Shown here: piece by piece, positions 28,210-58,866 of the stretch
How positions within the stretch are numbered: the first letter of the stretch is position 1
Layout of the letters: each line of letters opens with the position of its first letter
Assembly: GCA_963778115.1 (NCBI GenBank)
Contig: CAVZSV010000007.1
Coordinates: 151,175 to 215,174 of the forward strand
Source: an uncultured delta proteobacterium
GTDB taxonomy: Bacteria; Bdellovibrionota; FAC87; UBA2466
DNA length: 64,000 nucleotides
Reading direction: 5' to 3'
Made by a program: the position numbers and the translations under genes
Notes under the pieces: generated by a model
The model's input: only the letters and a program-made list of their open reading frames with translations
Told to the model about the DNA's origin: nothing
Database searches by the model: none

Positions 28210-31200
28210 TTGAATGCCGATTTTACACATCTTCATCTTCACACACAGTACAGCTTATTAGACGGAGCGATCCGCCTAGACGATCTTTTTGAAGCCGCCG
28301 TCGCCGATAAGATGGATGCTGTGGCCATTACCGATCACGGCAACATGTTTGGCGCTCTTGATTTTTACACCAAAGCCAAAGAGCACGGGATAAAACCCAT
28401 CCTGGGCTGTGAAGTCTATATGGCCCCGGGAAGTCGGCTCATCAAACAGGCCGGTTTCGCGAATGATGATGAAGTGGCTCCTTACGCCACCTGCCGGTCC
28501 GGCATGCATCACCTCAATCTGCTGTGCATGAACGAAATCGGCTACCGCAACCTCTGCAAATTGGTCAGCATAGGATATCTCGAAGGCTTTTATTACCGCC
28601 CTCGCATCGACAAAGAGGTGTTGGCCAAATACTCCGAGGGGCTTATTGCGACCTCCGCCTGCATGAAAGGAGAGGTGGCCCATTTAAGTCTGTTGGGTGA
28701 CATGGATCGCGCTCAGGCAGCCCTGGAAAGCTATCTTAAGATCTTTCCCGGGCGCTTTTATTTGGAGATAGAACAGAACGGTCTGCCTCAGCAGATGGTT
28801 ATCAACCAGCGATTTCAAGAGTTGGCTTCCAAGTGGAAGGTGCCTTTGATCGCAACGGCCGATTGCCATTACATCAAGAAAGAGGACGCTTTCAGCCAAG
28901 AGGTCTTGCTTTGTATCCAAACCGGAAAACAGATGGAGTCGATGGACCGATCCAACCTCAAGACTGACGAATTTTATTTCAAACCTCAGTCCACGATGAA
29001 AGAGGAGTTCTCCTTCTGCCCCGAGGCCATTTCCAACACCATGGAGATCGCCAAGCAATGCAATTTTGAATTCCAGTTTAACGACGAGCGCGGAAAGAAG
29101 ATTTACCACTACCCTAAGTTTGATCCTCCTCAGGGAAAGACTCCGGTCGACTACCTCAACGAACTTTCTCGAGAAGGATTAGAAAGGCGACTTCAAGAAA
29201 CGTCTGAAATGCTTCAAAAGGTATTTTCAGACGAGGATAAGGCGAAATATAACGCCCGGCTGGAGCGGGAACTCGGTGTTATCAACGAGATGGGATTCAC
29301 CGGATACTTTCTCATCGTGTCGGATTTCATTAAGTACGCCAAAGATCACGATATCCCTGTAGGCCCCGGTCGCGGATCCGGAGCAGGGAGTCTTGTGGCA
29401 TATGTGCTTCGCATTACCGAACTCGACCCCTTGGAACATCAACTTCTTTTTGAGCGGTTCCTTAATCCCGAACGCGTAAGTCTTCCCGACTTTGACATCG
29501 ATTTCTGCATGGATAAGCGGGACAAGGTGATCGAGTACGTTTCTCAAAAGTACGGCAAGGATTGTGTCGCGCAAATTATCACCTTTGGAAAGCTCCAAGC
29601 TCGGGGTGTCATTCGTGACGTCGGTCGCGTCTTTGGAATGCCAGTCCCCGACGTAGCTCGAATTGCCATGCTCGTTCCGGAGACCTTAAACATCACGATC
29701 GAAGAGGCTTTAGCCCAAGAGCCAAGACTGAAACAACTGGTCGATAAAGACCCCCACATCGCGGAACTGATAAAGATTTGCCAATCGCTAGAAGGCCTTT
29801 CAAGACATGCTTCCATTCATGCGGCAGGACTAGTTATCTCCAACCGTCCGATGGTGGAACACGTCGCCCTTTATCGCGGTAAGAATGACGAAATGGTCAT
29901 TCAATTCGACATGAACAATGCCGATAAGATTGGCCTCATTAAATTCGACTTTCTGGGACTAAAGACGCTGACCTTCTTGGAGCACGCCGAAAAGCTCGTG
30001 AACCTGCGCCATCCCGAAGCCAATTTTCGGTTGTCTCATATCCCACTGACCGACAAACCCATGTACGAACTGCTCGCCAAAGGGGATACCTTCGGCATAT
30101 TCCAAATGGAAAGTTCGGGCATGCAAGATTTAATGCGTAGACTTAGGCCCTCCGTTTTCGGAGATATTGTCGCTATCAACGCTTTATACCGCCCAGGGCC
30201 CATGGGTAGCGGCATGCTAGATGACTTCATCGCTCGTAAGAATGGAGAGGTCTCCATTACGTACGAATTCGACGATTTGATACCCATTCTGCAGGAGACA
30301 TACGGTGTTATCGTCTATCAGGAGCAGGTACAGCAGATCTCGATGAAGCTTGCTAGTTACACCGCGGGTGGTGCCGACCTTTTACGTCGAGCCATGGGTA
30401 AGAAAAAGGCCGAGGAGATGGCAAAGCAAAAAGCCGTTTTCTTGGAAGGCGCGCTTAAGAACAACTACGATAAAGTTAAGGCCGAAAAAATTTTCGATCT
30501 GATGGAAAAGTTTGCGGGCTATGGATTTAACAAATCTCATGCGGCTGCCTATTCTTTGGTAACCGTTCATACGGCCTATCTCAAAACTCACTATACGGTT
30601 GAATTTTTTGCCACTCTGCTTTCGATAGAACGTGAAAACACGGAAAAGATAACAAAGTACATTGCCGACGCCGTAAGACACGGGATAGAAATTATTGCTC
30701 CCGATATTAATGAGTCCGAAACCGATTTCACGGTAGTTTCAGAGAAGCAGATTCGTTTTGGACTAGGTGCCGTTAAAGGAGTGGGCCAGATCGCTATCGA
30801 CTCGGTTCTGGAGGCTCGCAAAAAGGGAGGACCCTTTTCTGACTTGTGGGATCTTTGTGCACGCTCCAGTACCAGAACCACCAATAAGCGAGTGCTGGAG
30901 GCCTTCGTCAAAGCGGGAGCTCTCGATAGCTTTGGCGCTAACCGCGCTAGCCTCTTTAAGGCGATAGACGAAGCTTTGGAATTAGGAACCGCTCAACAGA
31001 AGATCCGCGATGATAAGCAAAACAGCTTCGCTGATATATTCGGCCTCGACGACTCCAGCTTTTCCGTTCGTAAGGTGGCTTATCCTACCGAAAAGCCGTG
31101 GCCCAGGCTTACGGAACTCAAATATGAGAAAGACACCGTAGGATTTTTCGTAACGGGCCATCCCTTGGACGATTTCGACAAGGAACTTTCTCGCTATACC

Positions 31201-31770
31201 ACAGGAACCATAGGCGACTGCTTTCGCACGGGCTCCAGCAAAGAGGTTTTTATCGGGGCCGACGTCATAGCCCTTCGAGAGATCATCACCAAAAAGGGCG
31301 ACCGGATGGCCTTTGTGACTTTGGGAGACAAGACAGACCAGATCGAAGCAGTGGTCTTCTCCGATATGTTCCTCGAGAATGAAGCAACTTGGAAAAGCGG
31401 AGAACCCCTTTGGGTGAGAGCGACGGTTGAAGTCAGCGGTAATGGCAATAAGCTGATGATGTCCAAAAAGAGCCACTCGAAGGTTTTGCCCCTTCGCTAT
31501 GCTTACGAAGCGCTGGCCAGAGAGATCCACTTACATTTGCCGACAGGTCCGGATAAAGCCCTTATTCCCGCAGAAAAGCTTTCGCGCTTTAATAGTTATC
31601 TCCAATCGGTTGCCGACAAAAGCGGAGTGCCTGTCTACGTTCATGTTAATGTGGAGGGAAAGGCGACCACAGTGATGCGAATGAAACAAGTAGTCCCTTT
31701 GAAACGAGAAACGGTAAACTATATTCAATCCCTTTGGGCAGAGGAGAATGTCCGTGTCGATTTCCGCTAA
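28210..31770 (+). CDS. dnaE: DNA polymerase III alpha subunit
   Basis: ORF track; PHP-domain start HLHLHTQYSLLDG; 1186 aa. Confidence 0.95.
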   Translation: MNADFTHLHLHTQYSLLDGAIRLDDLFEAAVADKMDAVAITDHGNMFGALDFYTKAKEHGIKPILGCEVYMAPGSRLIKQAGFANDDEVAPYATCRSGMHHLNLLCMNEIGYRNLCKLVSIGYLEGFYYRPRIDKEVLAKYSEGLIATSACMKGEVAHLSLLGDMDRAQAALESYLKIFPGRFYLEIEQNGLPQQMVINQRFQELASKWKVPLIATADCHYIKKEDAFSQEVLLCIQTGKQMESMDRSNLKTDEFYFKPQSTMKEEFSFCPEAISNTMEIAKQCNFEFQFNDERGKKIYHYPKFDPPQGKTPVDYLNELSREGLERRLQETSEMLQKVFSDEDKAKYNARLERELGVINEMGFTGYFLIVSDFIKYAKDHDIPVGPGRGSGAGSLVAYVLRITELDPLEHQLLFERFLNPERVSLPDFDIDFCMDKRDKVIEYVSQKYGKDCVAQIITFGKLQARGVIRDVGRVFGMPVPDVARIAMLVPETLNITIEEALAQEPRLKQLVDKDPHIAELIKICQSLEGLSRHASIHAAGLVISNRPMVEHVALYRGKNDEMVIQFDMNNADKIGLIKFDFLGLKTLTFLEHAEKLVNLRHPEANFRLSHIPLTDKPMYELLAKGDTFGIFQMESSGMQDLMRRLRPSVFGDIVAINALYRPGPMGSGMLDDFIARKNGEVSITYEFDDLIPILQETYGVIVYQEQVQQISMKLASYTAGGADLLRRAMGKKKAEEMAKQKAVFLEGALKNNYDKVKAEKIFDLMEKFAGYGFNKSHAAAYSLVTVHTAYLKTHYTVEFFATLLSIERENTEKITKYIADAVRHGIEIIAPDINESETDFTVVSEKQIRFGLGAVKGVGQIAIDSVLEARKKGGPFSDLWDLCARSSTRTTNKRVLEAFVKAGALDSFGANRASLFKAIDEALELGTAQQKIRDDKQNSFADIFGLDDSSFSVRKVAYPTEKPWPRLTELKYEKDTVGFFVTGHPLDDFDKELSRYTTGTIGDCFRTGSSKEVFIGADVIALREIITKKGDRMAFVTLGDKTDQIEAVVFSDMFLENEATWKSGEPLWVRATVEVSGNGNKLMMSKKSHSKVLPLRYAYEALAREIHLHLPTGPDKALIPAEKLSRFNSYLQSVADKSGVPVYVHVNVEGKATTVMRMKQVVPLKRETVNYIQSLWAEENVRVDFR

Positions 31771-32860
31771 AATCAAAATAAGAGCGATTTCGTTGATATC
31801 GTTGATAGTCTTCCTATCTCAGGCTTCCACCTTCGCCGATGGGGTGACTTTCAACCAGACCGCGCCTGACCCAGGCGGAAATCCCGACGCCCAAACGGGG
31901 CTCATCGCGGGACTCAAGCTCAAAGCGATTAGCGAGTACTTACAAAACTACTTGGGTAGCCGCTATAGCTCGGTCGAAAAGTTTATCAATCATGACTTCG
32001 CTGAAAGATACATCTTGGATTACAAAGTCGGCAGGACCGCCGATCGCACGCAATTGCAAGTCGTCGGTAATTTGGACAGTGATGGACTGAAACGTTGGCT
32101 AAGGACGCTCGATGTTAAAACTCGAGGTAGCTCCCTCACCCCGTTTTTAGTCCTAAGTTCCTCGGTTCCCAACCTTCCTTACGCTATCACCGATACTTCG
32201 CAGCGGATTAAGGATAGTAGTCTGGCCCAAACTCTTCTCGCCGAGGTAAACACGAAGCTTCAGAAGGTCAACATCCGGCTCGGGACCGCCGACCTGTCTC
32301 ACCTTGGACTGAAGCAGCCCCCCATGAGTGATACCGATATCAAAACCCTTCGCGACCAGACCGGAGGCAATAGCTGTATTTGGGTCCAGTTCCAACCTTG
32401 CAAGACTTGCGGTGGGATGCGGATGGACTTGTATTTTTACAACTTAACGCAAGGCAGAAGGCTCTTGTCACGAAGCGACGACCTCATTTTAACGGCGGCC
32501 GATCTGGCGGACAAAACAAAAATTCGCGCAGTTCTTAGGACGCCTATTGAACAATTTCAAAGCGACGTTGAAGAACTAGTCTCCTCGGGCATGCTCACCA
32601 GTAGCTCCTACGACCTTACCGTCGAACAAGTAGACTCCTACCGAACCTACAAACAGATAGAGGCTTCCCTGGGCCGGTTAGATTTCATTGTGCAGGCCGT
32701 CCTTAACCGTAGCGAGCCCAAAGTGGCGGGATTTCAGGTGCTCTCTCCTTTATCCGCGCAGGAATTATCGCAACGGTTAGCTCAAGAAAACTTTGCCGGT
32801 TTTCATCTAAAGCCGGTGCGCGTTGATTCAAAGTCCCTCGTTGTGAGATACTCTGAATAG
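31748..32860 (+). CDS. hypothetical secreted protein
   Basis: ORF track; start overlaps dnaE 3' end by 23 nt; signal-peptide-like N-terminus. Confidence 0.6.
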   Translation: MSVSISAKIKIRAISLISLIVFLSQASTFADGVTFNQTAPDPGGNPDAQTGLIAGLKLKAISEYLQNYLGSRYSSVEKFINHDFAERYILDYKVGRTADRTQLQVVGNLDSDGLKRWLRTLDVKTRGSSLTPFLVLSSSVPNLPYAITDTSQRIKDSSLAQTLLAEVNTKLQKVNIRLGTADLSHLGLKQPPMSDTDIKTLRDQTGGNSCIWVQFQPCKTCGGMRMDLYFYNLTQGRRLLSRSDDLILTAADLADKTKIRAVLRTPIEQFQSDVEELVSSGMLTSSSYDLTVEQVDSYRTYKQIEASLGRLDFIVQAVLNRSEPKVAGFQVLSPLSAQELSQRLAQENFAGFHLKPVRVDSKSLVVRYSE

Positions 32861-32902
32861 ACGGTTTCTCTTCCCTTACTCTACCCCCCAAAGGAGGCTC
32901 AC

Positions 32903-33844
32903 GTGAAAACGTCAGCCGGTATTTGCGCTCTATTCTGCACTGTATTATTTTTATCCTCCTGCAGCAACCTCATCACTCCCGTTGATGATGAGGCGATAAG
33001 CAAAGTAGCCACCGCTCCGTCCGACGCGATTCCCGTACCTAAGAAAAAATTATTGGTCCTTCGCTTTATCAACAAAAGCCACACAGGAGGAGATGCATTG
33101 GCCTATTACGCCACAGATAAAATCTCCTCAGCTTTTCACGATGACGATGGCTTGGTTCTGGTTCCTTCCAAAGATGTGGAGGGTAACGAAACGTTTCTTA
33201 ACGAAGTCGGCGATTACGATCTCGCTCAAATCCTGTCGTCAGCGCGCAGCCACAATATCTCAGGCATCCTTTTAGGCACGATTCAAAACGTCGCCGTTCG
33301 TCAGGCAGGCGAAGAGGCGGGTCTTTTTCGCATGCGAGAGTATACCGTCGATGCCACGGTTCACGTTCAATTGATAGACGCCGCCACGGGGCGCGAAATC
33401 TTCTCGAAACTAGGAACGGCCCAGGTGTCCGAAGAGCACACGGAATTTCTCAATGACCGCTCACTCTCCAGTTTCGATAGCGAGCACGGGCAAAGTGCAG
33501 TGTCGCGGGCCATCGATAAAGTGACGCCCGATCTTCCTCTTTTTGCGCATAAGCTTTCTTGGAGTGGCAGAATTGCGAAAGTAGACTTACGTCGATATTA
33601 TATTAATGCAGGAGAACAGACCGGGTTAACTCGGGGACAGATTCTAAAAGTCTTCGATGATAGCCAGCCCGTTTACGATCCTGACAGTCACGCTCTTTTA
33701 GGACTAGCACCAGGGCGCTTTAAGGGCCTTCTTAAAGTGGTCGACTATTTTGGGTCAGATGGTGCGGTTGCCATTTTGTATTCCGGCGGCGGCTTTAAAG
33801 AGCGCGACCGAGTCGAATACTTTTCTTCTACTCAGGACAAATAA
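32903..33844 (+). CDS. hypothetical lipoprotein
   Basis: ORF track; AAGGAGG Shine-Dalgarno; signal peptide with lipobox LSSC. Confidence 0.7.
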   Translation: MKTSAGICALFCTVLFLSSCSNLITPVDDEAISKVATAPSDAIPVPKKKLLVLRFINKSHTGGDALAYYATDKISSAFHDDDGLVLVPSKDVEGNETFLNEVGDYDLAQILSSARSHNISGILLGTIQNVAVRQAGEEAGLFRMREYTVDATVHVQLIDAATGREIFSKLGTAQVSEEHTEFLNDRSLSSFDSEHGQSAVSRAIDKVTPDLPLFAHKLSWSGRIAKVDLRRYYINAGEQTGLTRGQILKVFDDSQPVYDPDSHALLGLAPGRFKGLLKVVDYFGSDGAVAILYSGGGFKERDRVEYFSSTQDK

Positions 33845-49599: not shown

Positions 49600-51036
49600 C
49601 TACGCTCTTTTTCTCTCGACAAGCCCGCGAACGTAATCGATGTGTCCTCGAAGGCCGTAAAACTGATCCGCAAAAGCAGGCGGGATCTTCATCTTGTTCA
49701 CCGCCTCTTCGATTTTATCGAAATGATCGCGAAGCATCTCCTGCTTAGCGGTATCGTGGGCCACAAGAAAATTGTTTTCTAGCAATAGAAGCTCGCGGTA
49801 CCGGCGATAGATCTTGCTTTGGGTTCGCCATCGAAAGAAAGAGGGAATGCTTCTCATCGCGGGGATTAAGATGACTAACATCGGAACAAAGACCACGACA
49901 AATCGACTGGTAAGACTAGCCAACCAGAAAGGCAAATACCGATAGAAAAGGCTTTTGCCCGATTTATAGAATCGAGTCGCATCATCGCTAATTCGAATGC
50001 CATGTTCGATGGGTGCTGGAAACTCCCCCCTATGCTGAAACACTCCCGGGCGACTATGCACGGAAGTGGCAGCTTCCAGTAACAGATCGGAAATAGCCGG
50101 GTGCAAATCCTTCGTCGCTACGAGCTCTACCATGGGGCCGACCAAAGCAATGTCGTGCGGCGGGATGTTCTGACCGAAATCGATGGCCCCTTGGGGAAGA
50201 TCTAAAACATTCAAGTAATCGATCTTGCGGCTATAAGCATTGGCTTGCTTAAAATCAAATAGATGGATGTCCTTCGATCGCAACAACCTATGCATGATGT
50301 CGGAAGAAGCACTCTCACTCATGATAAAAGCGGCATCAAGCTCTCCTTCAGCGAGTTTTTTCGCGGCATCAACCGCCTCCAGATCGAAAAATTTCGTGGT
50401 AGATCCCGGCTTGATTCCGTTGGCTTGGAGAAGCGCCGTCGCAAAATTATGAGTCCCGCTCTGAAGCGGTCCGGTTGAGACTCTTTTTCCCGCAAGCTCC
50501 GAAAGGAGATCCAGGTGCGTCCCTCGATAAAAAATTAAAACAGGCTGATAAGAGATGCTTCCTAAAGAGATGAGTTTGTCAGTCGCAGCGGTCGTGTTGG
50601 TGATACCCGCCTGAACTATCCCAATATCTACATGTTGGGACGGATCGTTAAGGCGCTTGAAATTTTCGAGCGATCCTTCCGAGGTTAAGACCCTAAGCTT
50701 CACGCCGTTACTTTCCAGAACCTTGGCGTACTTCAAGGCATTTTTTTGAAAGGCGCTTCCCTCGGGACCGCTACTAATCGTAATGGTTGTCGGCGGTGCG
50801 GAGTGAATAAAATAGATCACGGCAACTACAACAATGATTGCCGCGCTGGACAAGGCGGTAATCGCTATCGCAGGACCGATGTCGAAAAGTTCCATAATCG
50901 TCTTTAGACCGAACGGATAATTTTTCGTGGGGGTGGCGTTTATACTTGAAGGTGGCGGAGTCGTTTTTTTAGTCACGGGTATAACTATCCCCGATTCTGG
51001 GGGGAAATTCAATTTTTGCTCAGCGGAGGGGGGCAA
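49600..51036 (-). CDS. TAXI-family solute-binding-like protein with N- and C-terminal TM anchors
   Basis: ORF track (TTG start); block ITISSGPEGSAFQKNALKYAKVL...TSEGSLENFKRL resembles the TAXI N-terminal signature. Confidence 0.65.
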   Translation of the reverse strand: MPPSAEQKLNFPPESGIVIPVTKKTTPPPSSINATPTKNYPFGLKTIMELFDIGPAIAITALSSAAIIVVVAVIYFIHSAPPTTITISSGPEGSAFQKNALKYAKVLESNGVKLRVLTSEGSLENFKRLNDPSQHVDIGIVQAGITNTTAATDKLISLGSISYQPVLIFYRGTHLDLLSELAGKRVSTGPLQSGTHNFATALLQANGIKPGSTTKFFDLEAVDAAKKLAEGELDAAFIMSESASSDIMHRLLRSKDIHLFDFKQANAYSRKIDYLNVLDLPQGAIDFGQNIPPHDIALVGPMVELVATKDLHPAISDLLLEAATSVHSRPGVFQHRGEFPAPIEHGIRISDDATRFYKSGKSLFYRYLPFWLASLTSRFVVVFVPMLVILIPAMRSIPSFFRWRTQSKIYRRYRELLLLENNFLVAHDTAKQEMLRDHFDKIEEAVNKMKIPPAFADQFYGLRGHIDYVRGLVERKRA

Positions 51037-51140
51037 TTTACGATGACAAAAAATGTCACTCCTATAAGACTAAATCGAATCATTGAAAGTTATGGCTCTT
51101 TGCGTTAAAATCCGCCCCTATTAATTTATTTCGGGGGTAT

Positions 51141-52907
51141 TTGCTGATGTGGTTCGTGCGGGGCGGCAGCGCTCGTTTCTCCTATCACTTTTTTCTAACT
51201 CTCAGCTTTATTGCGCTCGTGGCGGGATGCGGAAAAGACGCCTCCATTCAGCTAACCAAACCGGACCCCGTAACGGTCAAAACCAAACGAGTCCATTTTA
51301 GCCTTGAATCGGCCGAACCTGGAAATATCGGAGCGGAACTTATCCATCCCAGTGGAACTCTAGAGATGGATGATGTCGGCCAAAGGGCTTTCGATTTACC
51401 CATCGGCCATAGCCTCGAAGTAAAGCTGAAGTTAGAAGACGGATGGGAAGTTAAGAAGTGGAATATTCTTCCCGGCGGAAACGTCGATCCCAATATTAAG
51501 CAGAACTACTTCAAGATTAGTAACGTCCAAGACGATACCCAAATTTCGGTATCGGTCGGCAAAAAAGAGATTCCTAAAATAGAGACTAAGACGGTCTACT
51601 TGAAAATCGAATCTCCCGAGAAAGAAACGGTCATCGCGGACGTCGTTTCACTTGATGATCCCTTCGTCTTTAGAGGACCCGGCGAAAGAGTCATCGATCT
51701 TCCCACGACCGATGACTTAAACGTGACACTTACGCTGCCCGATCAATGGGAAGTGGAAAAATGGACCCTCTCTGCCGCCGCTGATTACGATGATCCCGGC
51801 AAAGGAACTAATCTTATCGTTAAGCGGATCAAAAGTGATCTGCATGTCACGGCCAAAGTCCGTAGGATTCCTCACGTGGCTCCCCCCGAGACTAAAACGG
51901 TTTATTTTAAATTGGAGTCGCCCGAAAAAGAGACCTTCGTGGCAAACGTAGGCTCACTCGAAAAAGCGCTTACCTTTTCGGGTACCGGTGAAAGAGCTCT
52001 CGACTTGCCCACGGCTGACGATCTCAGTATTTCGCTCAACCTTCCTGAGCAATGGGAAATTGAGAAATGGTCACTTTCAGCTCCGGCGGAATACGACGAT
52101 CCAGGAGCAGGAACCCATCTTCTCGTGAAGCGGGTGAAAAAAGATCTTCACGTGACCGCCAAGGTTCGTCGAGTTCCTCACGTGCCGCCGCCACAAACCA
52201 AGACGGTCTACCTCAAGATCGAAGCTCCGGAAAAGGGAAAAGTCTTTGCTGATATCGCATCCATCGAGAAGAGTCTGGTCTTTCTAGGCGACGGTGAACG
52301 GATTATTGATCTGCTCGCTAGCGAAGATCTCAAAATAGCCCTGACACTTCCCCAACATTGGGAAGTGCAAAAGTGGACGCTGTCTTCCGATGCCGAATAT
52401 GATGAGCCCGGAACCGGCCGTAAGTTAGTAGTCCGCCGCGTTCCCGGTGATCTTCACGTAACGGTGAAATTGCGCAAGGTCCCCTTCTTTACCTTTAAGG
52501 TTCGAGTCGCGGGAACTAGCTTTCTGAACGGAGACATTGGAAGCGGTCTGGTTAAGTGGAAAGCCTATCGCCCCACTCAACAGCCTGCCGACAATTTCGA
52601 GTTCGGCGATGACGAAGTAGATTCGTCTTTGGGAATTGAAAATATCGATAAAGCGTCGCCCAAGGTACTCACTTTCCCCAATGGAACGAAACTGCGAGTC
52701 AAGTACACCTTCACTGATTCTACCGACAGGCTGAGAACGCTTGTGGACACCATCGTCTTGGATGAAAACAAGACGTTGGACGTGGATTACCATAAAATCA
52801 TCGGAGTCGATTTCAGTGGCAAAAGCCCAGGCTTTTACCAGGCGCTAGAGATCGATCCCAAAGCAAAGCAGGAAATCGATCCCCAATCCAGTGAGAACAG
52901 GGAGTAG
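51141..52907 (+). CDS. lipoprotein with four tandem about 100-aa repeats
   Basis: ORF track; lipobox LVAGC; repeat unit KTVYLKIESPEKE...DLHVTAKVRR. Confidence 0.75.
   Translation: MLMWFVRGGSARFSYHFFLTLSFIALVAGCGKDASIQLTKPDPVTVKTKRVHFSLESAEPGNIGAELIHPSGTLEMDDVGQRAFDLPIGHSLEVKLKLEDGWEVKKWNILPGGNVDPNIKQNYFKISNVQDDTQISVSVGKKEIPKIETKTVYLKIESPEKETVIADVVSLDDPFVFRGPGERVIDLPTTDDLNVTLTLPDQWEVEKWTLSAAADYDDPGKGTNLIVKRIKSDLHVTAKVRRIPHVAPPETKTVYFKLESPEKETFVANVGSLEKALTFSGTGERALDLPTADDLSISLNLPEQWEIEKWSLSAPAEYDDPGAGTHLLVKRVKKDLHVTAKVRRVPHVPPPQTKTVYLKIEAPEKGKVFADIASIEKSLVFLGDGERIIDLLASEDLKIALTLPQHWEVQKWTLSSDAEYDEPGTGRKLVVRRVPGDLHVTVKLRKVPFFTFKVRVAGTSFLNGDIGSGLVKWKAYRPTQQPADNFEFGDDEVDSSLGIENIDKASPKVLTFPNGTKLRVKYTFTDSTDRLRTLVDTIVLDENKTLDVDYHKIIGVDFSGKSPGFYQALEIDPKAKQEIDPQSSENRE
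51276..52490 (+). repeat. four tandem about 300-bp coding repeats (first diverged)
   Basis: periodicity read from the translation; boundaries approximate. Confidence 0.6.
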
Positions 52908-52909
52908 TT

Positions 52910-53533
52910 GTGAAGTCACTTTTACGTGTCATGGCTCTGCTATGCATTCTGGTGACTCGGTTGGGCTTTGCCGATACCGATCAGGCCGATGCAGGACTGT
53001 ACTACGCGGCTGAAGAGGCCTTAACCACCAATCATAAGTGGGAATTGCGAGTCAATGCGGGTTACGATTTTTCCAATTCGTTTCTCGCTATCTATCCTAT
53101 AGAACTTGGAGCGCTCTATATGATCGACCCCTCCATGTCGGTAGGGTTAGAAGGAGCTATCTTCGCTTCCGGAAAAAAAGGATCTGCAGAGACCCTTGCG
53201 ACTGAACTTAAGAAATTTGATTACGACATGTATGCGATCTCCCCTCTGGCAAAAGCGGTAGGCCTATTTCGCCTGACCCCCATCTCGGGGCTAGTGAATG
53301 TCTTTTCCAGGCACATCGTAAAGATCGACATCAGCCTTGTCGCGAAAGCCGGGGTTATTCGATATCAAACCGCAGGCTGGGGCCCCACGGCTGGAGTGGG
53401 ACTTGAGACTCTCATCGGTATGGGACCCAATTGGGGTCTAACGATCGCTTTCAATTACGAGTATGACAAACCCACCAGTGATGACTGGTTGTGGAGAGCG
53501 GGAATCTTAGTTGGGCCGAGCTACCGATTTTAA
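52910..53533 (+). CDS. small outer-membrane beta-barrel-like protein
   Basis: ORF track (GTG start 3 nt after upstream stop); signal peptide; alternating hydrophobic pattern; C-terminal SYRF. Confidence 0.6.
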   Translation: MKSLLRVMALLCILVTRLGFADTDQADAGLYYAAEEALTTNHKWELRVNAGYDFSNSFLAIYPIELGALYMIDPSMSVGLEGAIFASGKKGSAETLATELKKFDYDMYAISPLAKAVGLFRLTPISGLVNVFSRHIVKIDISLVAKAGVIRYQTAGWGPTAGVGLETLIGMGPNWGLTIAFNYEYDKPTSDDWLWRAGILVGPSYRF

Positions 53534-53535
53534 TT

Positions 53536-54141
53536 ATGTCGAAACGCAGCACACATTTTCGGCTTGTACTCATCGCGGCTTGGATCGGAGCCTTGAGCAC
53601 GTGTGCTCTGGCGGACGACAGCTCTGCTAAAGCGCTCTTTCACGAGCTTAAGGCGGGCGACTACAGTGACGCGATCCCAAAGCTCCAAAGCATTCACAAA
53701 GACTCTCCCAACTTTGTTTGGTCCGTTCAGGAGATCGCAAAGTCATTTTATAAATTGGAGCGTTGGTCGGAATTTTTTGGAGTTGCCTACTTTTCGAGAA
53801 AAGCGCTACCCGTGTCCCGCGAAACAGAAAAGATTAGACTGCTGGAGATTCTAGCTTTGCTCAGGCACTGTCAACCCGAGCAAGCCAAAGAAGTTTTCAC
53901 CCTGCGTCCCTATTCGCAAGACCAGGATCTAAAAAAGCACTTTGAAGTCATTGGAGAACTATTACAGATTCCTGCATCCATGAGTCTAAACATCAGGCCC
54001 GAAGACCAGACAAAAAAAGGTAAAGGAGCTTTCCCAGCGGCTAATTTATGGCCGGTCTCGCAGATTCCGCTTCAGAAACTGGAACCGTACAAGCTTCGCA
54101 GAAAAGTAAAAGCCCTTTGCGAAAAGAAGGGGACTCCGTGA
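53536..54141 (+). CDS. hypothetical periplasmic protein
   Basis: ORF track 53491..54141; ATG at 53536 lies 3 nt after upstream stop and starts a signal peptide. Confidence 0.6.
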   Translation: MSKRSTHFRLVLIAAWIGALSTCALADDSSAKALFHELKAGDYSDAIPKLQSIHKDSPNFVWSVQEIAKSFYKLERWSEFFGVAYFSRKALPVSRETEKIRLLEILALLRHCQPEQAKEVFTLRPYSQDQDLKKHFEVIGELLQIPASMSLNIRPEDQTKKGKGAFPAANLWPVSQIPLQKLEPYKLRRKVKALCEKKGTP

Positions 54142-56432
54142 GAATCCTTTTCTTTTTGTTTCTAGCGCTAGCGGCGATTCTGACCCCTTCTCTGGCCGAG
54201 GCTAGCGGGGTAGCGGCGGCCTCTGACGGTGATCTAACCAAGGCGTTTCGCTTGGCATATGAAGGAGATCTTACGGATGGAGCTTTGGTCAGAGGCTTGG
54301 AAGTTCGATTCGGCCAAAAACGAAGCCCACGGGATAGGGTGCTCTGCGCGTATCTGCTCACCTTTTCGCCTCGACGGCTTCTCAGCAATCCACGAAGCGA
54401 ATATATTGAGTTTGTTATCAACGATCCCAAAGCCAAAGAGATTCTGGGAGAAGACTCTCTTTTCAGGCTCTATCGAATCCGTGGTGACGAAGCTTACGAC
54501 GATGGTAAGTTCGAACTCTCCGTTCACGATCACAAAGCATTACTCCGATCGCAAGACCGCATGCTACGTGATTATGCCATTCTTAAAGTGGGTTGGGGTT
54601 ATCTCAACTTAAAGCGATCTTCGGACGCTTACCATTTTTGGTTAGAGAATACCGAAAAAGCACTCCAAACCGGAGTTCAGAACGTCTCGCCCAACCTTCT
54701 CCATGGTTTGGCCCTGGCTCTAGTAGAAGATACGGAACGTACCGCACAGGATATTGATAGATTAGGAAAGCTGAACCTCGATAATACCCTGAAGCAGGAA
54801 TTCATCGGTGGAATCGAAGAAGGACTTGATTCGCTCACTAAAGAATCTGACCAGCAAACGCTGGCCCATCAAATCCAGACGTTGTCATGGCGGCCAGAAT
54901 TATTAGCGGGCCTCTTTGAACGATCTAAACTTGTAGGAAAACGGGCGTGCCGCCTCATCTACTGGCTTGAGGCTCCAGGGCAAACTCTCGACTGGGCCAC
55001 GCAGGGACGTATCATGGAATCTTGCGCGCAATGGGCCGGCCGAGCGGAGAAAGACCAAAGGGACTCGGGATTGCAGGCTCGTTTAGAAACGCTTCTCCCA
55101 AGATACGATCTTCATGGGAGTGACCGGCGGGTTCGTTTTGAATGGTACCGATCCTTAAAGCGAAATCCGCTAGCCTGCACCGAAGGAATTAGCTGGCTCT
55201 CGGATAAGATCGACGGGTCCACTCGAAAACTAGCACCGGTAAAAGAGATCAATCAGGTTTGCACGGACGCGGCTCCTCAACTGACATCCACACAGGTAGC
55301 ATGGTTAATGGATCGCTTCCAGGCTGGGACCACCGAATCGGGTTACCTTAGCGCTCAAGATGAACCGCTGCTTTTTATCTTAACCTCGCTACTTTCGGAT
55401 CGCGCGATTCGCGATGCTCTGGTCACGAGGCTCCAAACCAACCCCGCCGTATTTAAGAAGACTCTGGTTCCGAGCCTACTTGCTGAAAATCTGCGCAAAC
55501 ATAAAGAGAGTACTAAAGCTGCTCAACTCTTAGCTCTCTATGGAGAGCAAGCCGATGGTCAGATACGAACCGAGTCTATCTGGCAGGGGCTTCTCACGGA
55601 GAAGCTAATGGCCTCAGTGTCGGCGAAGAACTATGCGGATGCTCTGACTACCGTCGAAAAAACGCTTCCCATCAAAGCCGAGCGGAAACTGACCGAACCT
55701 CAGGTGGAGATGTGGTTAAGCGTTATCGTCAAAGCCAAAGATGATGCTGGATCGAAAGATCGTGCTTCAAAAGGACTGCAAGCTTTAGTCGCTAGCGGCT
55801 ATGGGCTTGAGTACCGGAAATTGACCGGAGCCATCTTAGAACTGTGCGGCCAATACCATCTTTGGGGAGATTTTTGGACGGTTCTTAAGAATAATAAATG
55901 CCCTCCTTTTTCCGAGGTTGCCTCTGAAAAATTGAAACTTGAACTCTTTGAAGCCATTGCTTCGAACCAGTGGCGGGTTCCAGAGACCGAGAAGAACTCA
56001 GACCCTGAATTTAATTTTTTGGTTCAACTCGCAAGTTCTCTCAAAGAACCGGCTAACAAGATCGCGCAGATTGAACCTGTTGGAAAATCGGTCCTTGCTC
56101 AGGACTTAAAGATGGTCAAAGCCATCGATAAGAAACGACAAGAGGTTCTAGGTCCAAAGTTAAGTAGCCGGGATAGGATCACCCAAGTGACGACTTGGGT
56201 TCAGTTCTTGGATCGGCATATTAAACAGGTTGAGCGTCGTCTTTGGAGCAGTACCCTATTCTATCGTACGGCGAATTCCAGTTTGGCCGATTTCTGTGGT
56301 GAAGCTAAGACTCGGCTATCTACCATGACCCAAGTTTCCAAACACAAAGCCGATTCTGTGGAGCAATGGGAGCAATTTGCACCGGTTCTCGTACAGCGAC
56401 TAGACGATTGTGAGAAGCGGAGAAACTTATGA
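54138..56432 (+). CDS. large secreted all-alpha (TPR-like?) protein
   Basis: ORF track 54048..56432; GTG at 54138 overlaps upstream stop (GTGA) and is followed by a signal peptide. Confidence 0.7.
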   Translation: MRILFFLFLALAAILTPSLAEASGVAAASDGDLTKAFRLAYEGDLTDGALVRGLEVRFGQKRSPRDRVLCAYLLTFSPRRLLSNPRSEYIEFVINDPKAKEILGEDSLFRLYRIRGDEAYDDGKFELSVHDHKALLRSQDRMLRDYAILKVGWGYLNLKRSSDAYHFWLENTEKALQTGVQNVSPNLLHGLALALVEDTERTAQDIDRLGKLNLDNTLKQEFIGGIEEGLDSLTKESDQQTLAHQIQTLSWRPELLAGLFERSKLVGKRACRLIYWLEAPGQTLDWATQGRIMESCAQWAGRAEKDQRDSGLQARLETLLPRYDLHGSDRRVRFEWYRSLKRNPLACTEGISWLSDKIDGSTRKLAPVKEINQVCTDAAPQLTSTQVAWLMDRFQAGTTESGYLSAQDEPLLFILTSLLSDRAIRDALVTRLQTNPAVFKKTLVPSLLAENLRKHKESTKAAQLLALYGEQADGQIRTESIWQGLLTEKLMASVSAKNYADALTTVEKTLPIKAERKLTEPQVEMWLSVIVKAKDDAGSKDRASKGLQALVASGYGLEYRKLTGAILELCGQYHLWGDFWTVLKNNKCPPFSEVASEKLKLELFEAIASNQWRVPETEKNSDPEFNFLVQLASSLKEPANKIAQIEPVGKSVLAQDLKMVKAIDKKRQEVLGPKLSSRDRITQVTTWVQFLDRHIKQVERRLWSSTLFYRTANSSLADFCGEAKTRLSTMTQVSKHKADSVEQWEQFAPVLVQRLDDCEKRRNL

Positions 56433-56665
56433 AGCTAACTCTTCTCTTTGGGCTTTTGCTGTGTGTCCAGATTTCTCAGGCGGGAGAAGTAGTGGACGTA
56501 GGTAAGTACCAGACTCAAGGAACCATGCGTGGGCCCGAAGTTCAATTTATTGATTCGGACAGAATTGGTTCCGATGCGGCGGGCAGACTTGGACAAGCGC
56601 AGCTTAAAGAAATGGAAACCGAATTGTTACAACCGGAAGAACCTATTGCGAAGGGGGCGAAGTGA
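56429..56665 (+). CDS. small secreted protein (78 aa)
   Basis: ORF track; ATGA overlap upstream and GTGA overlap downstream; signal peptide. Confidence 0.5.
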   Translation: MKLTLLFGLLLCVQISQAGEVVDVGKYQTQGTMRGPEVQFIDSDRIGSDAAGRLGQAQLKEMETELLQPEEPIAKGAK

Positions 56666-57774
56666 AAACCTCTACGAAAATAGAAAATTCACTCCACACT
56701 CCTCAATTGGAAATTAAACAGCTAGGGAGTCAAAAGACCAGCACCGAAAATCTTCCCTTTGCCTGTGAACTAAATTCCAAAATGATACAAATCATCGTGC
56801 CAACCTACGCACGCGTATCCGTCCAGAACCAATGGCGGTGGGTGGATATTCATAACGGACAACATTGGGGTGCTATTGGAGTCCAGTCCCCTCAAAACAA
56901 ATTAGACTTCTCTTTTCCGACCGAGACTTCCCTTAGGATTTCAGCTAACGGGAAAACCTGGCTAGTCCGGCTGCATCCAGTAGCACAAACGGGGCGACGG
57001 TTTTCGATCGGTTCGACGATTAAGTCCACGAGCTATTTTGGATTATCGCTTATCGGCCATATCAGCCTCTTGCTATTACTTTGGTACGGAGTGACTCAAA
57101 AATTTGATTTGGGCGGCTTTAATTCGGAGACCGAGAAGGCCCAGAAAGAAAAACCAAAGCCACAAGCTTCGGCGGCAGCGGAAGGTGGCGGTGAACCGGT
57201 CAGTCGTCCATTTGAAGGAATTACCTTCACCGAATACAGCAAAAAGCTTGAGGCCGCTAAACGTGAAGCCAATCCGTTAGGATTTCTTGCTCAGAGTCTA
57301 AATAAGATGAAAGTAAAGAGTGGGGCGGGAAAAGGAAAAGGTTCCGGCGTCCAAAGTGCCACTGGCGTCATTGGCTCCGGTTTAGGAACCGGGACAGGTA
57401 CGTCGCTCACCGATGCTATCTCGAATCAGAAATTTAACGTCCAAGCTACCGGTTCCACCGCCGGAGGTAAACAGGTTACCGAAAAACAGAAATTGGCATT
57501 ACGCGAGAAATTTCGAGAACTCCAGGACGACTTTAAACGTATCTACTCTAAGCTTTTAAGCCAAGATCCGAGCCTTTCAGTCACCGTGGCGTTCCAAACT
57601 CGGGTTCAGGGAAATGGATATCTCGAGCTTTCCGACTTCAAAGCTCGTGGGACTTATCAACCCAGTACCATTCCTCAGTTAAAGGGGGCCATGGCCGATG
57701 TCCTTCGTAGCGTTTATGTAGGGCCGGAACTAAGTGGACTAACGTTAAGAGCGGAAAACGTTTTTGTAAGATAA
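56662..57774 (+). CDS. TonB/TolA-like bitopic protein with about 120-aa cytoplasmic N-domain
   Basis: ORF track; single TM YFGLSLIGHISLLLLLWYGV; Gly/Lys-rich linker; C-terminal about 90 aa with TonB-C-like pattern; sits directly upstream of exbB-exbD. Confidence 0.55.
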   Translation: MKTSTKIENSLHTPQLEIKQLGSQKTSTENLPFACELNSKMIQIIVPTYARVSVQNQWRWVDIHNGQHWGAIGVQSPQNKLDFSFPTETSLRISANGKTWLVRLHPVAQTGRRFSIGSTIKSTSYFGLSLIGHISLLLLLWYGVTQKFDLGGFNSETEKAQKEKPKPQASAAAEGGGEPVSRPFEGITFTEYSKKLEAAKREANPLGFLAQSLNKMKVKSGAGKGKGSGVQSATGVIGSGLGTGTGTSLTDAISNQKFNVQATGSTAGGKQVTEKQKLALREKFRELQDDFKRIYSKLLSQDPSLSVTVAFQTRVQGNGYLELSDFKARGTYQPSTIPQLKGAMADVLRSVYVGPELSGLTLRAENVFVR

Positions 57775-57786
57775 AGGAGAAGAAAG

Positions 57787-58425
57787 ATGATTCATCAACT
57801 ATTTACCATGTTCAACTGGTTAGGATCCGAGTGGATACTCGGGGTTCTTTTCTTGTTGAGTGTCACTACCTTTGGGGTAGTCCTCGCGCGCTGGTTCGAA
57901 CTTCGCAAACTAAAGAATGCTAGCGGCCGATTTTGGGACGAGCATGGCGAAGCGTGGTTTAAAAGTGATGATCTTGATGACTGGAAAGCTCAGATAGAAA
58001 AATTAAAAGCCAGTTACCGCTGCCTGGAAACCGACACTCTTGAGATCATAGAGCGTAACCATAAGGGGACCGACGAAGAGATCGAGCGCGCCGTTGCCGC
58101 CTATCTGGAACATCGCAAACTCAAGCTCGAACGGTATGTGGGAATCCTAGGAACTATCGGATCAAACGCTCCGTTTATCGGACTTTTGGGAACCGTACTT
58201 GGTATCATTCGCGCCTTCCATGACATGGCTACCCAAGGGCTCAGCCAAGGAATGGAGAACATCAGCGGCGGTATCGCCGAAGCTCTCGTCGCAACAGCCG
58301 TAGGTTTGATGGTAGCTATTCCCGCAGTCGTATTCTTCAATATCTTGAATAAGCGTATCTCCAACCTGGTTCGTCGAGCCCAAAGCGTAAGTGCATTGGC
58401 TTTAAGTCAACCCGACAAGAAGTAA
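57787..58425 (+). CDS. exbB: MotA/TolQ/ExbB-family proton channel
   Basis: ORF track; AAGGAG Shine-Dalgarno; conserved GLLGTVLGII and GIAEALVATAVGLMVAIPAVV. Confidence 0.85.
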   Translation: MIHQLFTMFNWLGSEWILGVLFLLSVTTFGVVLARWFELRKLKNASGRFWDEHGEAWFKSDDLDDWKAQIEKLKASYRCLETDTLEIIERNHKGTDEEIERAVAAYLEHRKLKLERYVGILGTIGSNAPFIGLLGTVLGIIRAFHDMATQGLSQGMENISGGIAEALVATAVGLMVAIPAVVFFNILNKRISNLVRRAQSVSALALSQPDKK

Positions 58426-58437
58426 GAGGAGTTAGTC

Positions 58438-58866
58438 ATGGCCATCAATATGGGTAATCAGGACGATACAGGGATTAATGAGATTAATATCACGCCATTC
58501 GTGGATATTGTTTTGGTACTTCTCATTATCTTTATGATCTCTACACCTGCGATGGTTTATCGCGGAATGAGGGTAAACCTCCCCAAAGCAATGAACTCAG
58601 AGGATTTGAGTCATGTCACCCTCACTTTGATGCTCTCTGCTGACGGAAAACTCTGGATCGACAAGCGTGAGATTACCCTGCAAGATCTAAAAGGAATTTG
58701 CGACAAGCTGAAAGAGAATAAGACCGAAGGAGATGCTCTCATTTCAGCCGATTCCGCGGTCACTCACGGAAAGGTGATGGAAGTCGCCGATTTTCTCAAA
58801 ACCCAAGGAATTCAGCAGATAGGCTTTGCCACGTCCTCGGCGGGAGCCGACACCCGGAAAAAATAA
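58438..58866 (+). CDS. exbD: ExbD/TolR-family biopolymer transport protein
   Basis: ORF track; INITPFVDIVLVLLIIFMISTP signature. Confidence 0.85.
   Translation: MAINMGNQDDTGINEINITPFVDIVLVLLIIFMISTPAMVYRGMRVNLPKAMNSEDLSHVTLTLMLSADGKLWIDKREITLQDLKGICDKLKENKTEGDALISADSAVTHGKVMEVADFLKTQGIQQIGFATSSAGADTRKK

Follow-up and report, generated by a model that had tools for sequence, protein, structure and literature searches.

A compact operon with a TolQ/TolR-type motor as a candidate stripped-down relative of the Agl-Glt/Nfs trans-envelope machines

How force is transferred from TolQR, ExbBD, or AglRQS motors across the periplasm to their partners in the outer membrane (OM) is an open question, and it is raised again by a cluster of eight genes, here named g1–g8, located at positions 51141–58866 of the DNA analyzed in this study, a 64,000-nucleotide stretch of contig CAVZSV010000007.1 (hereafter the window). 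What might a motor of this type drive when it is encoded directly behind a series of exported proteins? The initial annotation of this DNA had proposed an envelope-spanning machine driven by the proton motive force and had left the choice between an Agl/Glt-like complex and a specialized Ton/Tol system open; our analysis supports such a machine and favors the Glt side over the Ton/Tol side. With slightly better than even confidence, we consider that the cluster encodes a self-contained, stripped-down Agl-Glt/Nfs-type trans-envelope force-transmission machine. The eight open reading frames (ORFs), all on the plus strand and all lying where the initial annotation had placed them, are given below with their predicted products, whose lengths are in amino acids (aa), together with a promoter-like site; "position" refers to the corresponding place in the Agl-Glt system of Myxococcus xanthus.

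51083..51111, plus strand: promoter-like site TTGAAA-17-TAAAAT, 30 nucleotides (nt) upstream of g1, the best consensus match of the region (10/12)
51141..52907, plus strand: g1, outer-membrane lipoprotein, 588 aa (lipobox LVAGC, then Gly)
52910..53533, plus strand: g2, small outer-membrane beta-barrel, 207 aa (GltA/GltB position)
53536..54141, plus strand: g3, secreted helical TPR-like protein, 201 aa (GltC position)
54138..56432, plus strand: g4, secreted all-alpha solenoid, 764 aa (proposed periplasmic scaffold, GltD position)
56429..56665, plus strand: g5, secreted protein, 78 aa, ~58 aa mature (GltF/CglF position)
56662..57774, plus strand: g6, GltG/TonB/TolA-type transducer, 370 aa (domain layout, membrane-helix motif)
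57787..58425, plus strand: g7, TolQ/ExbB/AglR-type proton-channel subunit, 212 aa (PF01618)
58438..58866, plus strand: g8, TolR/ExbD/AglQ-type subunit, 142 aa (PF02472; the only such gene in the cluster)

From g1 to g8, the successive junctions measure +2, +2, -4, -4, -4, +12, and +12 nt. The start/stop overlaps described earlier (GTGA at 54138, ATGA at 56429, and GTGA at 56662) are all present in the sequence, and the gap range, formerly given as 2–13 nt, is 2–12 nt when measured. Two starts were ambiguous in the raw ORF list: for g3, GTG at 53491 or ATG at 53536, of which the latter places the signal peptide at the N-terminus, and for g4, ATG at 54048 or GTG at 54138, of which the latter was chosen because it fits both the homologs and the database copy P0093 (764 aa, 100% identical). 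No convincing terminator-like site was found on the plus strand between g1 and g8. The promoter-like site is known from its consensus match only, and sites of this sort are no more numerous than in the shuffled expectation; together with the terminator-free interior, the site is consistent with a single g1–g8 transcript, although it does not prove one. A search of Rfam for regulatory RNAs, over the window and the leader upstream of g1, found no match. The G+C content of the cluster (0.47–0.50) equals that of the rest of the window, and the surroundings consist of chromosomal housekeeping genes (dnaE, lepB, pgsA, lipB, and trpF). We conclude that g1–g8 form a genuine, tightly packed operon.

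Gene contexts were read in the related loci L001/L004 (70% identity), L002 (65%), L006 (~48%), L003/L005 (~32%), and L007 (~33%, with a short form of g6), and further in L015, L011, L012/L013, L008–L010 (22%), and L014. Every locus carries, consecutively, a protein of 738–821 aa, one of 76–122 aa, a g6 homolog, one ExbB, and exactly one ExbD. BLAST detected homologs of all seven g2–g8 proteins in L001, L003–L007, and L008 (22% identity); the 5.7-kb contig of L002 begins within g4, its readable genes being g4–g8, and in the remaining loci g2-like and g3-like genes were assigned by gene size and position. Homologs of g2 and g3 are found either directly upstream of the rest or in a divergent operon, which in L008 (3953–6920, minus strand) and L014 (2218–6968, minus strand) comprises both genes and a variable third one. 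In all, the g2–g8 set recurs, with unrelated flanks everywhere, in about ten lineages whose identities range from 70% to 22%, and the -4 overlaps at g3/g4, g4/g5, and g5/g6 are preserved in 6/6 collinear lineages compared. The seven genes g2–g8 are inherited together, and this co-conservation, with the conserved overlaps, excludes a chance juxtaposition of unrelated genes. Co-occurrence of all eight genes, the check put forward with the initial annotation, thus holds for g2–g8 in about ten lineages and fails for g1; because g1 is lineage-variable, the conserved unit consists of seven genes, not eight.

This unit is rare. A word search with g6 in 5.8 billion proteins returned 5 close homologs, the same search with g4 returned 4 homologs, to which a seven-sequence g4 profile added none, and an exhaustive g6 profile search of 1.84 billion representatives yielded 84 clusters at 50% identity. 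All 20 of the 84 g6-family representatives that were looked up came from metagenomic contigs or metagenome-assembled genomes (MAGs), where they occurred on 1–7 contigs and were unnamed or annotated as "hypothetical protein". A locus scan with an 11-sequence g6 alignment found only 2 loci in genome representatives and another 2 in metagenomes. "Bdellovibrionota bacterium", attached to L002 (65% identity), is the only taxonomic label among the relatives; with its 65%-identity relative labeled as a Bdellovibrionota MAG, the organism probably belongs to the same phylum as Bdellovibrio. The module is so far known only from rare uncultured bacteria.

The motor is encoded by the last two genes. g7 matches PF01618 (MotA_ExbB) at 5.2e-33 with 113.9 bits (gathering cut-off 22.9) and g8 matches PF02472 (ExbD) at 1.1e-25 with 90.6 bits (gathering cut-off 25.4), and since both exceed the Pfam gathering cut-offs, the earlier ExbB/ExbD assignment is borne out. 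Among NCBIfam models, the two proteins score highest on the TolQ and TolR equivalogs, g7 reaching 127 bits against TIGR02796 (tolQ), under the 221-bit equivalog cut-off, and g8 reaching 94.7 bits against TIGR02801 (tolR), under the 127-bit equivalog cut-off; the top PDB matches of g7, TolQ 8odt (1e-18) and ExbB 5sv0 (7e-17), are near equal. The g7 helices GLLGTVLGII and GI(A/S)EALVATA-GL-VAIPA are kept in 7/7 homologs, as is the membrane-helix Asp of g8 (NITPFVD). The roles of such motor residues are known from ExbD D25, TolR D23, and TolQ T145/T178. Judged from their sequences, g7 and g8 form a proton-channel pair of the TolQ/TolR type in which the conserved channel residues are intact. g7 also gives a weak, generic match to ZorA (8.4e-6, 23 bits), as would be expected of a Zorya-type anti-phage system, but this match is limited to the common MotA/ExbB channel helices, and PADLOC found no ZorB/C/D or other match for the other seven proteins. 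Taken together with the chance juxtaposition considered above, a Zorya-type identity is given almost no credence; with a lone 23-bit channel-helix match to its name, the identification as a defense system was rejected.

The motor is preceded by g6, which consists of a cytoplasmic beta domain (residues 16–104), a membrane helix (124–147), a disordered linker, and a C-terminal domain (274–368) of alpha-beta-beta-alpha-beta topology. Its membrane helix bears S129-x3-H133-x6-L140 of the S-x3-H-x6-L-x3-S (SHLS) motif, the fourth position not being Ser, and across the family the His is present in 40/40, the Ser in 35/40, and the Leu in 24/40 members. TonB and TolA use the S-x3-H helix signature for their coupling to ExbB and TolQ. 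The architecture of g6, this signature included, is that of a TonB/TolA/GltG transducer, and it fits the TonB/TolA-like label given to the protein initially. Although predicted to be disordered, the linker holds the conserved segments SRPFEG-x-(T/S)-x-T-x-Y and AAKREANPLG-x-L, F184 and G186 are conserved family-wide, and such strong conservation despite predicted disorder suggests that the linker may fold upon binding a partner. About a dozen g6-family clusters are short (248–273 aa; P0014, P0020–P0029; L007 12471–13244) and begin just ahead of the membrane helix; because these forms have no cytoplasmic beta domain, that domain is dispensable in some lineages.

In profile searches, distant members of the g6 family gave sub-threshold matches to gliding-protein models. 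Matches to NF033768 (AgmX/PglI C-terminal domain) were found in 18/40 members, at 20–33 bits versus a cut-off of 40; they are C-terminal, cover the full 92-position model, and reach a best E value of 4.7e-8. Four of the 40 members matched NF033760 (GltG), at about 16–17 bits versus a cut-off of 650. The window g6 matched neither NF033760 nor NF033768 even at E<=10, and a PDB sequence-profile search with the g6 family returned nothing meaningful.

Could the cluster instead be a specialized TonB-ExbB-ExbD uptake system that powers import across the OM? It has in common with such systems the ExbB and ExbD family matches of g7 and g8, the S-x3-H (SHLS-type) helix motif, and a C-terminal alpha/beta domain in g6 that is of the size of TonB C-terminal domains (CTDs) and resembles them. 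However, g6 has no Pro-rich rigid spacer and possesses a cytoplasmic beta domain, of which TonB has none, and Pfam assigned no family at all to the 40 g6-family members, TonB_C included. No TonB-dependent 22-strand receptor is encoded in the cluster or any related locus, g2 is too small, at ~185 aa when mature, for a gated transporter, conserved linkage to substrate-binding or ABC import genes is absent, and four extra conserved periplasmic/OM proteins are without counterpart in Ton systems. Because there is neither a receptor nor a TonB_C match, we do not regard the cluster as a TonB uptake system, a reading that we consider very improbable.

A divergent Tol-like system is a further alternative. 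In that case g7, g8, and g6 would energize OM tethering, lipid homeostasis, or constriction, without a role in motility or surface transport, and novel periplasmic/OM partners would replace TolB, Pal, and CpoB. Like Tol-Pal (TolQ-TolR-TolA-TolB-Pal-CpoB), the cluster is trans-envelope and has a TolQ5:TolR2-type motor with a single TolR, and g6 has a TolA-like membrane-helix motif and a possibly TolA-like C-terminal fold. On the other hand, the motor genes stand last and not first, which makes the gene order the reverse of tolQRA-tolB-pal, and the cluster includes four unrelated conserved periplasmic/OM partners; a TolB beta-propeller and a Pal/OmpA-like peptidoglycan-binding lipoprotein are absent from g1–g6 and from the related loci. 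The scores of g7 and g8 well under the TolQ/TolR equivalog cut-offs, the rarity of the family (84 clusters in 1.84 billion representatives), which ill suits a housekeeping envelope system, and the sub-threshold matches, which favor Glt models over Tol models, also argue against it. The cluster is not Tol-Pal, given the missing TolB and Pal, the reversed order, and motor proteins under the equivalog thresholds, and we regard a divergent Tol-like function as unlikely. The flanking genes match no characterized Tol-Pal, TonB, or Agl/Glt operon.

Among the exported proteins, homologs of g2 and g5 give further Glt-type signals. All four of g2–g5 are shown by prediction to be exported. g2 has a signal peptide, its homologs end in aromatic-x-Phe (7/7), and TIGR04565 (OMP_myx_plus) is matched at 1e-4 by the window protein, at 1.7e-5 by that of L003, and at 2.3e-8 by that of L012, all under the 60-bit cut-off (22–34 bits). 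g3 carries a signal peptide and two conserved Cys residues, and several of its homologs give weak TPR_19, TPR_16, and ARM-type matches in the same N-terminal segment. The model of g4 is all-alpha, with a predicted local distance difference test score (pLDDT) of 85, and neither Pfam nor NCBIfam contains a family that matches it. g5 has a signal peptide and a homolog in every locus; across 7 lineages, it displays the motif (V/I)IDLG-x5-G-x2-RGPE-x-Q-x-IDS, which is strand-like and is followed by a helix with L-x2-LE-x-ELL. The g5 homologs of L008 and L011 match NF033764 (gliding_CglF) at E values of 0.022 and 0.075, in the same model segment and with about 13–15 bits versus the 90-bit cut-off, and the window g5 itself has no NF033764 match; CglF and GltF are the same protein (PMC4488436). 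On this evidence, the initial labels largely stand: a small OM beta-barrel for g2 (signal peptide, C-terminal Phe, sub-threshold TIGR04565), a periplasmic protein for g3, which we find to be weakly TPR-like, a 764-aa all-alpha secreted protein for g4, a 78-aa secreted peptide for g5, and, from its lipobox and four repeats, a repeat lipoprotein for g1.

Compared part by part, the M. xanthus Agl-Glt system (aglRQS; gltA-K, cglC/gltK) shares with the cluster a TolQ/TolR-type motor and an OM lipoprotein (CglC/GltK). Its periplasmic scaffold, which is large and helical (GltD), its small secreted protein with little structure (GltF/CglF), its TPR protein beneath the OM (GltC), and its small barrels (GltA/B) have putative counterparts in g4, g5, g3, and g2. 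GltG and g6 are alike in being single-pass proteins with a cytoplasmic beta (FHA-like) domain by the helix, a long disordered linker, and a TonB-CTD-like head, and the C-terminal two thirds of the GltG model match the g6 layout (PMC11761067). Gene order is similar as well: the genes for the lipoprotein, the barrel, and the TPR protein correspond to cglC-gltB-gltA-gltC of Myxococcus (PMC4488436), the next three, for the large helical protein, the small protein, and the transducer, to gltD-(gltE)-gltF-gltG (PMC3169522), and TolQ followed by TolR to aglR-aglQ/S. The sub-threshold matches converge on Glt and agree with this gene order. Because distant relatives of g6, g5, and g2 give such matches and the gene order is collinear, the Glt reading is favored over Ton/Tol.

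Several observations weigh against an assignment to Agl-Glt. The two-TolR motor formed by AglR with AglQ and AglS was not found, exactly one ExbD/TolR gene being present in the window as in each of the related loci, whereas two TolR-like genes occur in every Myxococcus and HD100 Glt/Nfs set listed by Luciano et al. (PMC3169522). GltE, GltH, GltI, GltJ, GltK, AglZ, and MglA are all missing from the cluster and its flanks. Among the window proteins, only g7 and g8 reach any curated family threshold, the matches of g4 are restricted to generic TPR-like helical repeats, and the Glt-type matches are all sub-threshold and come from distant homologs, not from window proteins. The parts also differ in number and size: one barrel versus two, a g4 of 764 aa versus a GltD of ~1200 aa (GltD being compared by size and description), a TPR protein of 201 aa (g3) versus 673 aa (GltC), and a g6 that lacks the first FHA domain of GltG and has 370 versus ~650 aa. 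They are assembled in one operon here versus three loci in Myxococcus. No second Glt-like cluster was found in the window, where the ORF of 1186 aa at 28210 encodes DnaE and has housekeeping genes as neighbors.

Comparable sets are found in Bdellovibrio bacteriovorus HD100, for which four "expanded core complexes" were described, namely Bd0413-0420, Bd0828-0838, Bd1474-1481, and Bd2369-2377 (Luciano et al., 2011; PMC3169522). Each occupies a single locus, as the cluster does, and combines GltB-, GltC-, GltD-, and GltG-like genes with a TolQR-type motor; the HD100 GltG homologs are short (376–488 aa) and one GltF homolog has 82 aa, both akin to the cluster, and the order of Bd0828-0838 comes closest to it (PMC3169522). 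When compared by the published listing, however, the HD100 sets contain AglR, two TolR-like genes, and a GltD of 987–1237 aa, whereas the cluster lineages have one ExbD and a scaffold of 738–821 aa. With its one TolR, its shorter scaffold, and no GltE/H/I/J/K in the locus, the cluster is not, in the strict sense, one of the described Glt/Nfs sets. It is probably a reduced, distant homolog of Agl-Glt/Nfs that works like one.

A mechanism may be outlined on the published Agl-Glt model, from which we infer the contacts among g2–g6 and the output. Proton flow through a g7(5):g8(2) stator would drive the membrane helix of g6, whose disordered periplasmic linker and TonB-CTD-like head would engage the helical scaffold g4. 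In the way suggested for GltF, g5 could provide a bridge to the TPR-like g3, which would lie beneath the OM barrel g2. The surface part, to be moved or put on display, would be a lipoprotein or a large secreted protein that varies between lineages (g1 in this cluster). By analogy, the output is most likely mechanical work at the cell surface, i.e., gliding-type motility, adhesion, or Nfs-like movement of a surface component; nutrient import or division-linked OM constriction is less likely.

The same architecture might specifically move a surface polymer or coat component, for example in a developmental or predatory stage. Nfs of Myxococcus, a Glt paralog with the order A-B-C-D-E-F-G-H, is powered by AglRQS and serves spore-coat assembly (PMC3858216; PMC3169522), Glt-like core complexes of unknown function occur in non-gliding bacteria (Luciano et al.; PMC3169522), and the partner gene neighboring the module is variable. 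Against this, no polysaccharide synthesis or export genes adjoin the module in the window or the related loci; the mechanism would be that of the Agl-Glt/Nfs-type machine, with the output alone differing, and nothing separates such transport from motility or adhesion. We regard a dedicated Nfs-like transport role as rather improbable.

The surface part is where the loci diverge. g1 contains four repeats of ~102 aa (residues 49–455) followed by a 135-aa C-terminal domain, and it has no Pfam, NCBIfam, or PDB sequence match. Its homolog in L001/L004 is 39% identical, in L006 it has shrunk to a one-repeat form of 263 aa, and in L003/L005, L007, L008, and L014 it is absent (as in L007) or swapped for unrelated secreted proteins or lipoproteins, among them a protein of 552 aa in L008 and one of 1106 aa, with faint beta-propeller matches, in L014. 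Lipoproteins are also encoded downstream of the module in L006, L008, L011, and L013. Those downstream of ExbD in L008 are two tandem paralogs, 72% identical. g1 thus appears to be a lineage-variable accessory or cargo protein outside the conserved set, and the variation in this neighboring gene, for a lipoprotein or a large secreted protein, is suggestive of modularity, with a motor plus an exchangeable surface part.

Among the neighboring genes, trpF (phosphoribosylanthranilate isomerase; 58890–59567, plus strand; PF00697, 4.7e-23) is solitary and starts 23 nt past g8; as no terminator-like site lies between the two, read-through from the envelope operon may occur. It was rejected as a ninth member, being unlinked to the module in any other locus. 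Beyond it, a secreted 486-aa protein without a family match (59617–61077) precedes a secreted 420-aa protein (61151–62413, plus strand) with a weak match to NF047832 (EACC1-associated caspase-type; 1.9e-4, under the cut-off). Divergent from g1, a 478-aa protein (49600–51036, minus strand) contains a TAXI-family TRAP solute-binding domain (TIGR02122, 8.9e-19, under the cut-off) and has hydrophobic segments at both ends, an unusual membrane-anchored layout. Two ORFs of 370 and 313 aa (31748–33844, plus strand) lie directly downstream of dnaE and have no NCBIfam match.

More tentatively, and with a good deal of doubt, the seven-gene module may represent a minimal, self-sufficient, and previously unrecognized class of TolQR-powered trans-envelope machine, sister or ancestral-like to Agl-Glt, with a homodimeric TolR, one barrel, a short scaffold, and coupling to surface lipoproteins or large secreted proteins that can be exchanged for one another. 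In Myxococcus, at least 17 parts encoded at several loci make up the machine. If the proposal is true, no simpler system of this kind would be known, and the module would be a tractable model of how a 5:2 motor passes force to the OM; seven genes in one operon, with a single TolR, a single barrel, and a scaffold of 764 aa, would be a far simpler target for complex prediction, reconstitution, and cryo-electron microscopy. With a rare family and, to date, no cultured carrier among those found, genetics is not available at present. According to a 2026 review, the gliding machinery of Bdellovibrio is still unidentified (PMC13104615), and the module, if our proposal holds, would be a candidate for the gliding or surface apparatus of some Bdellovibrionota.

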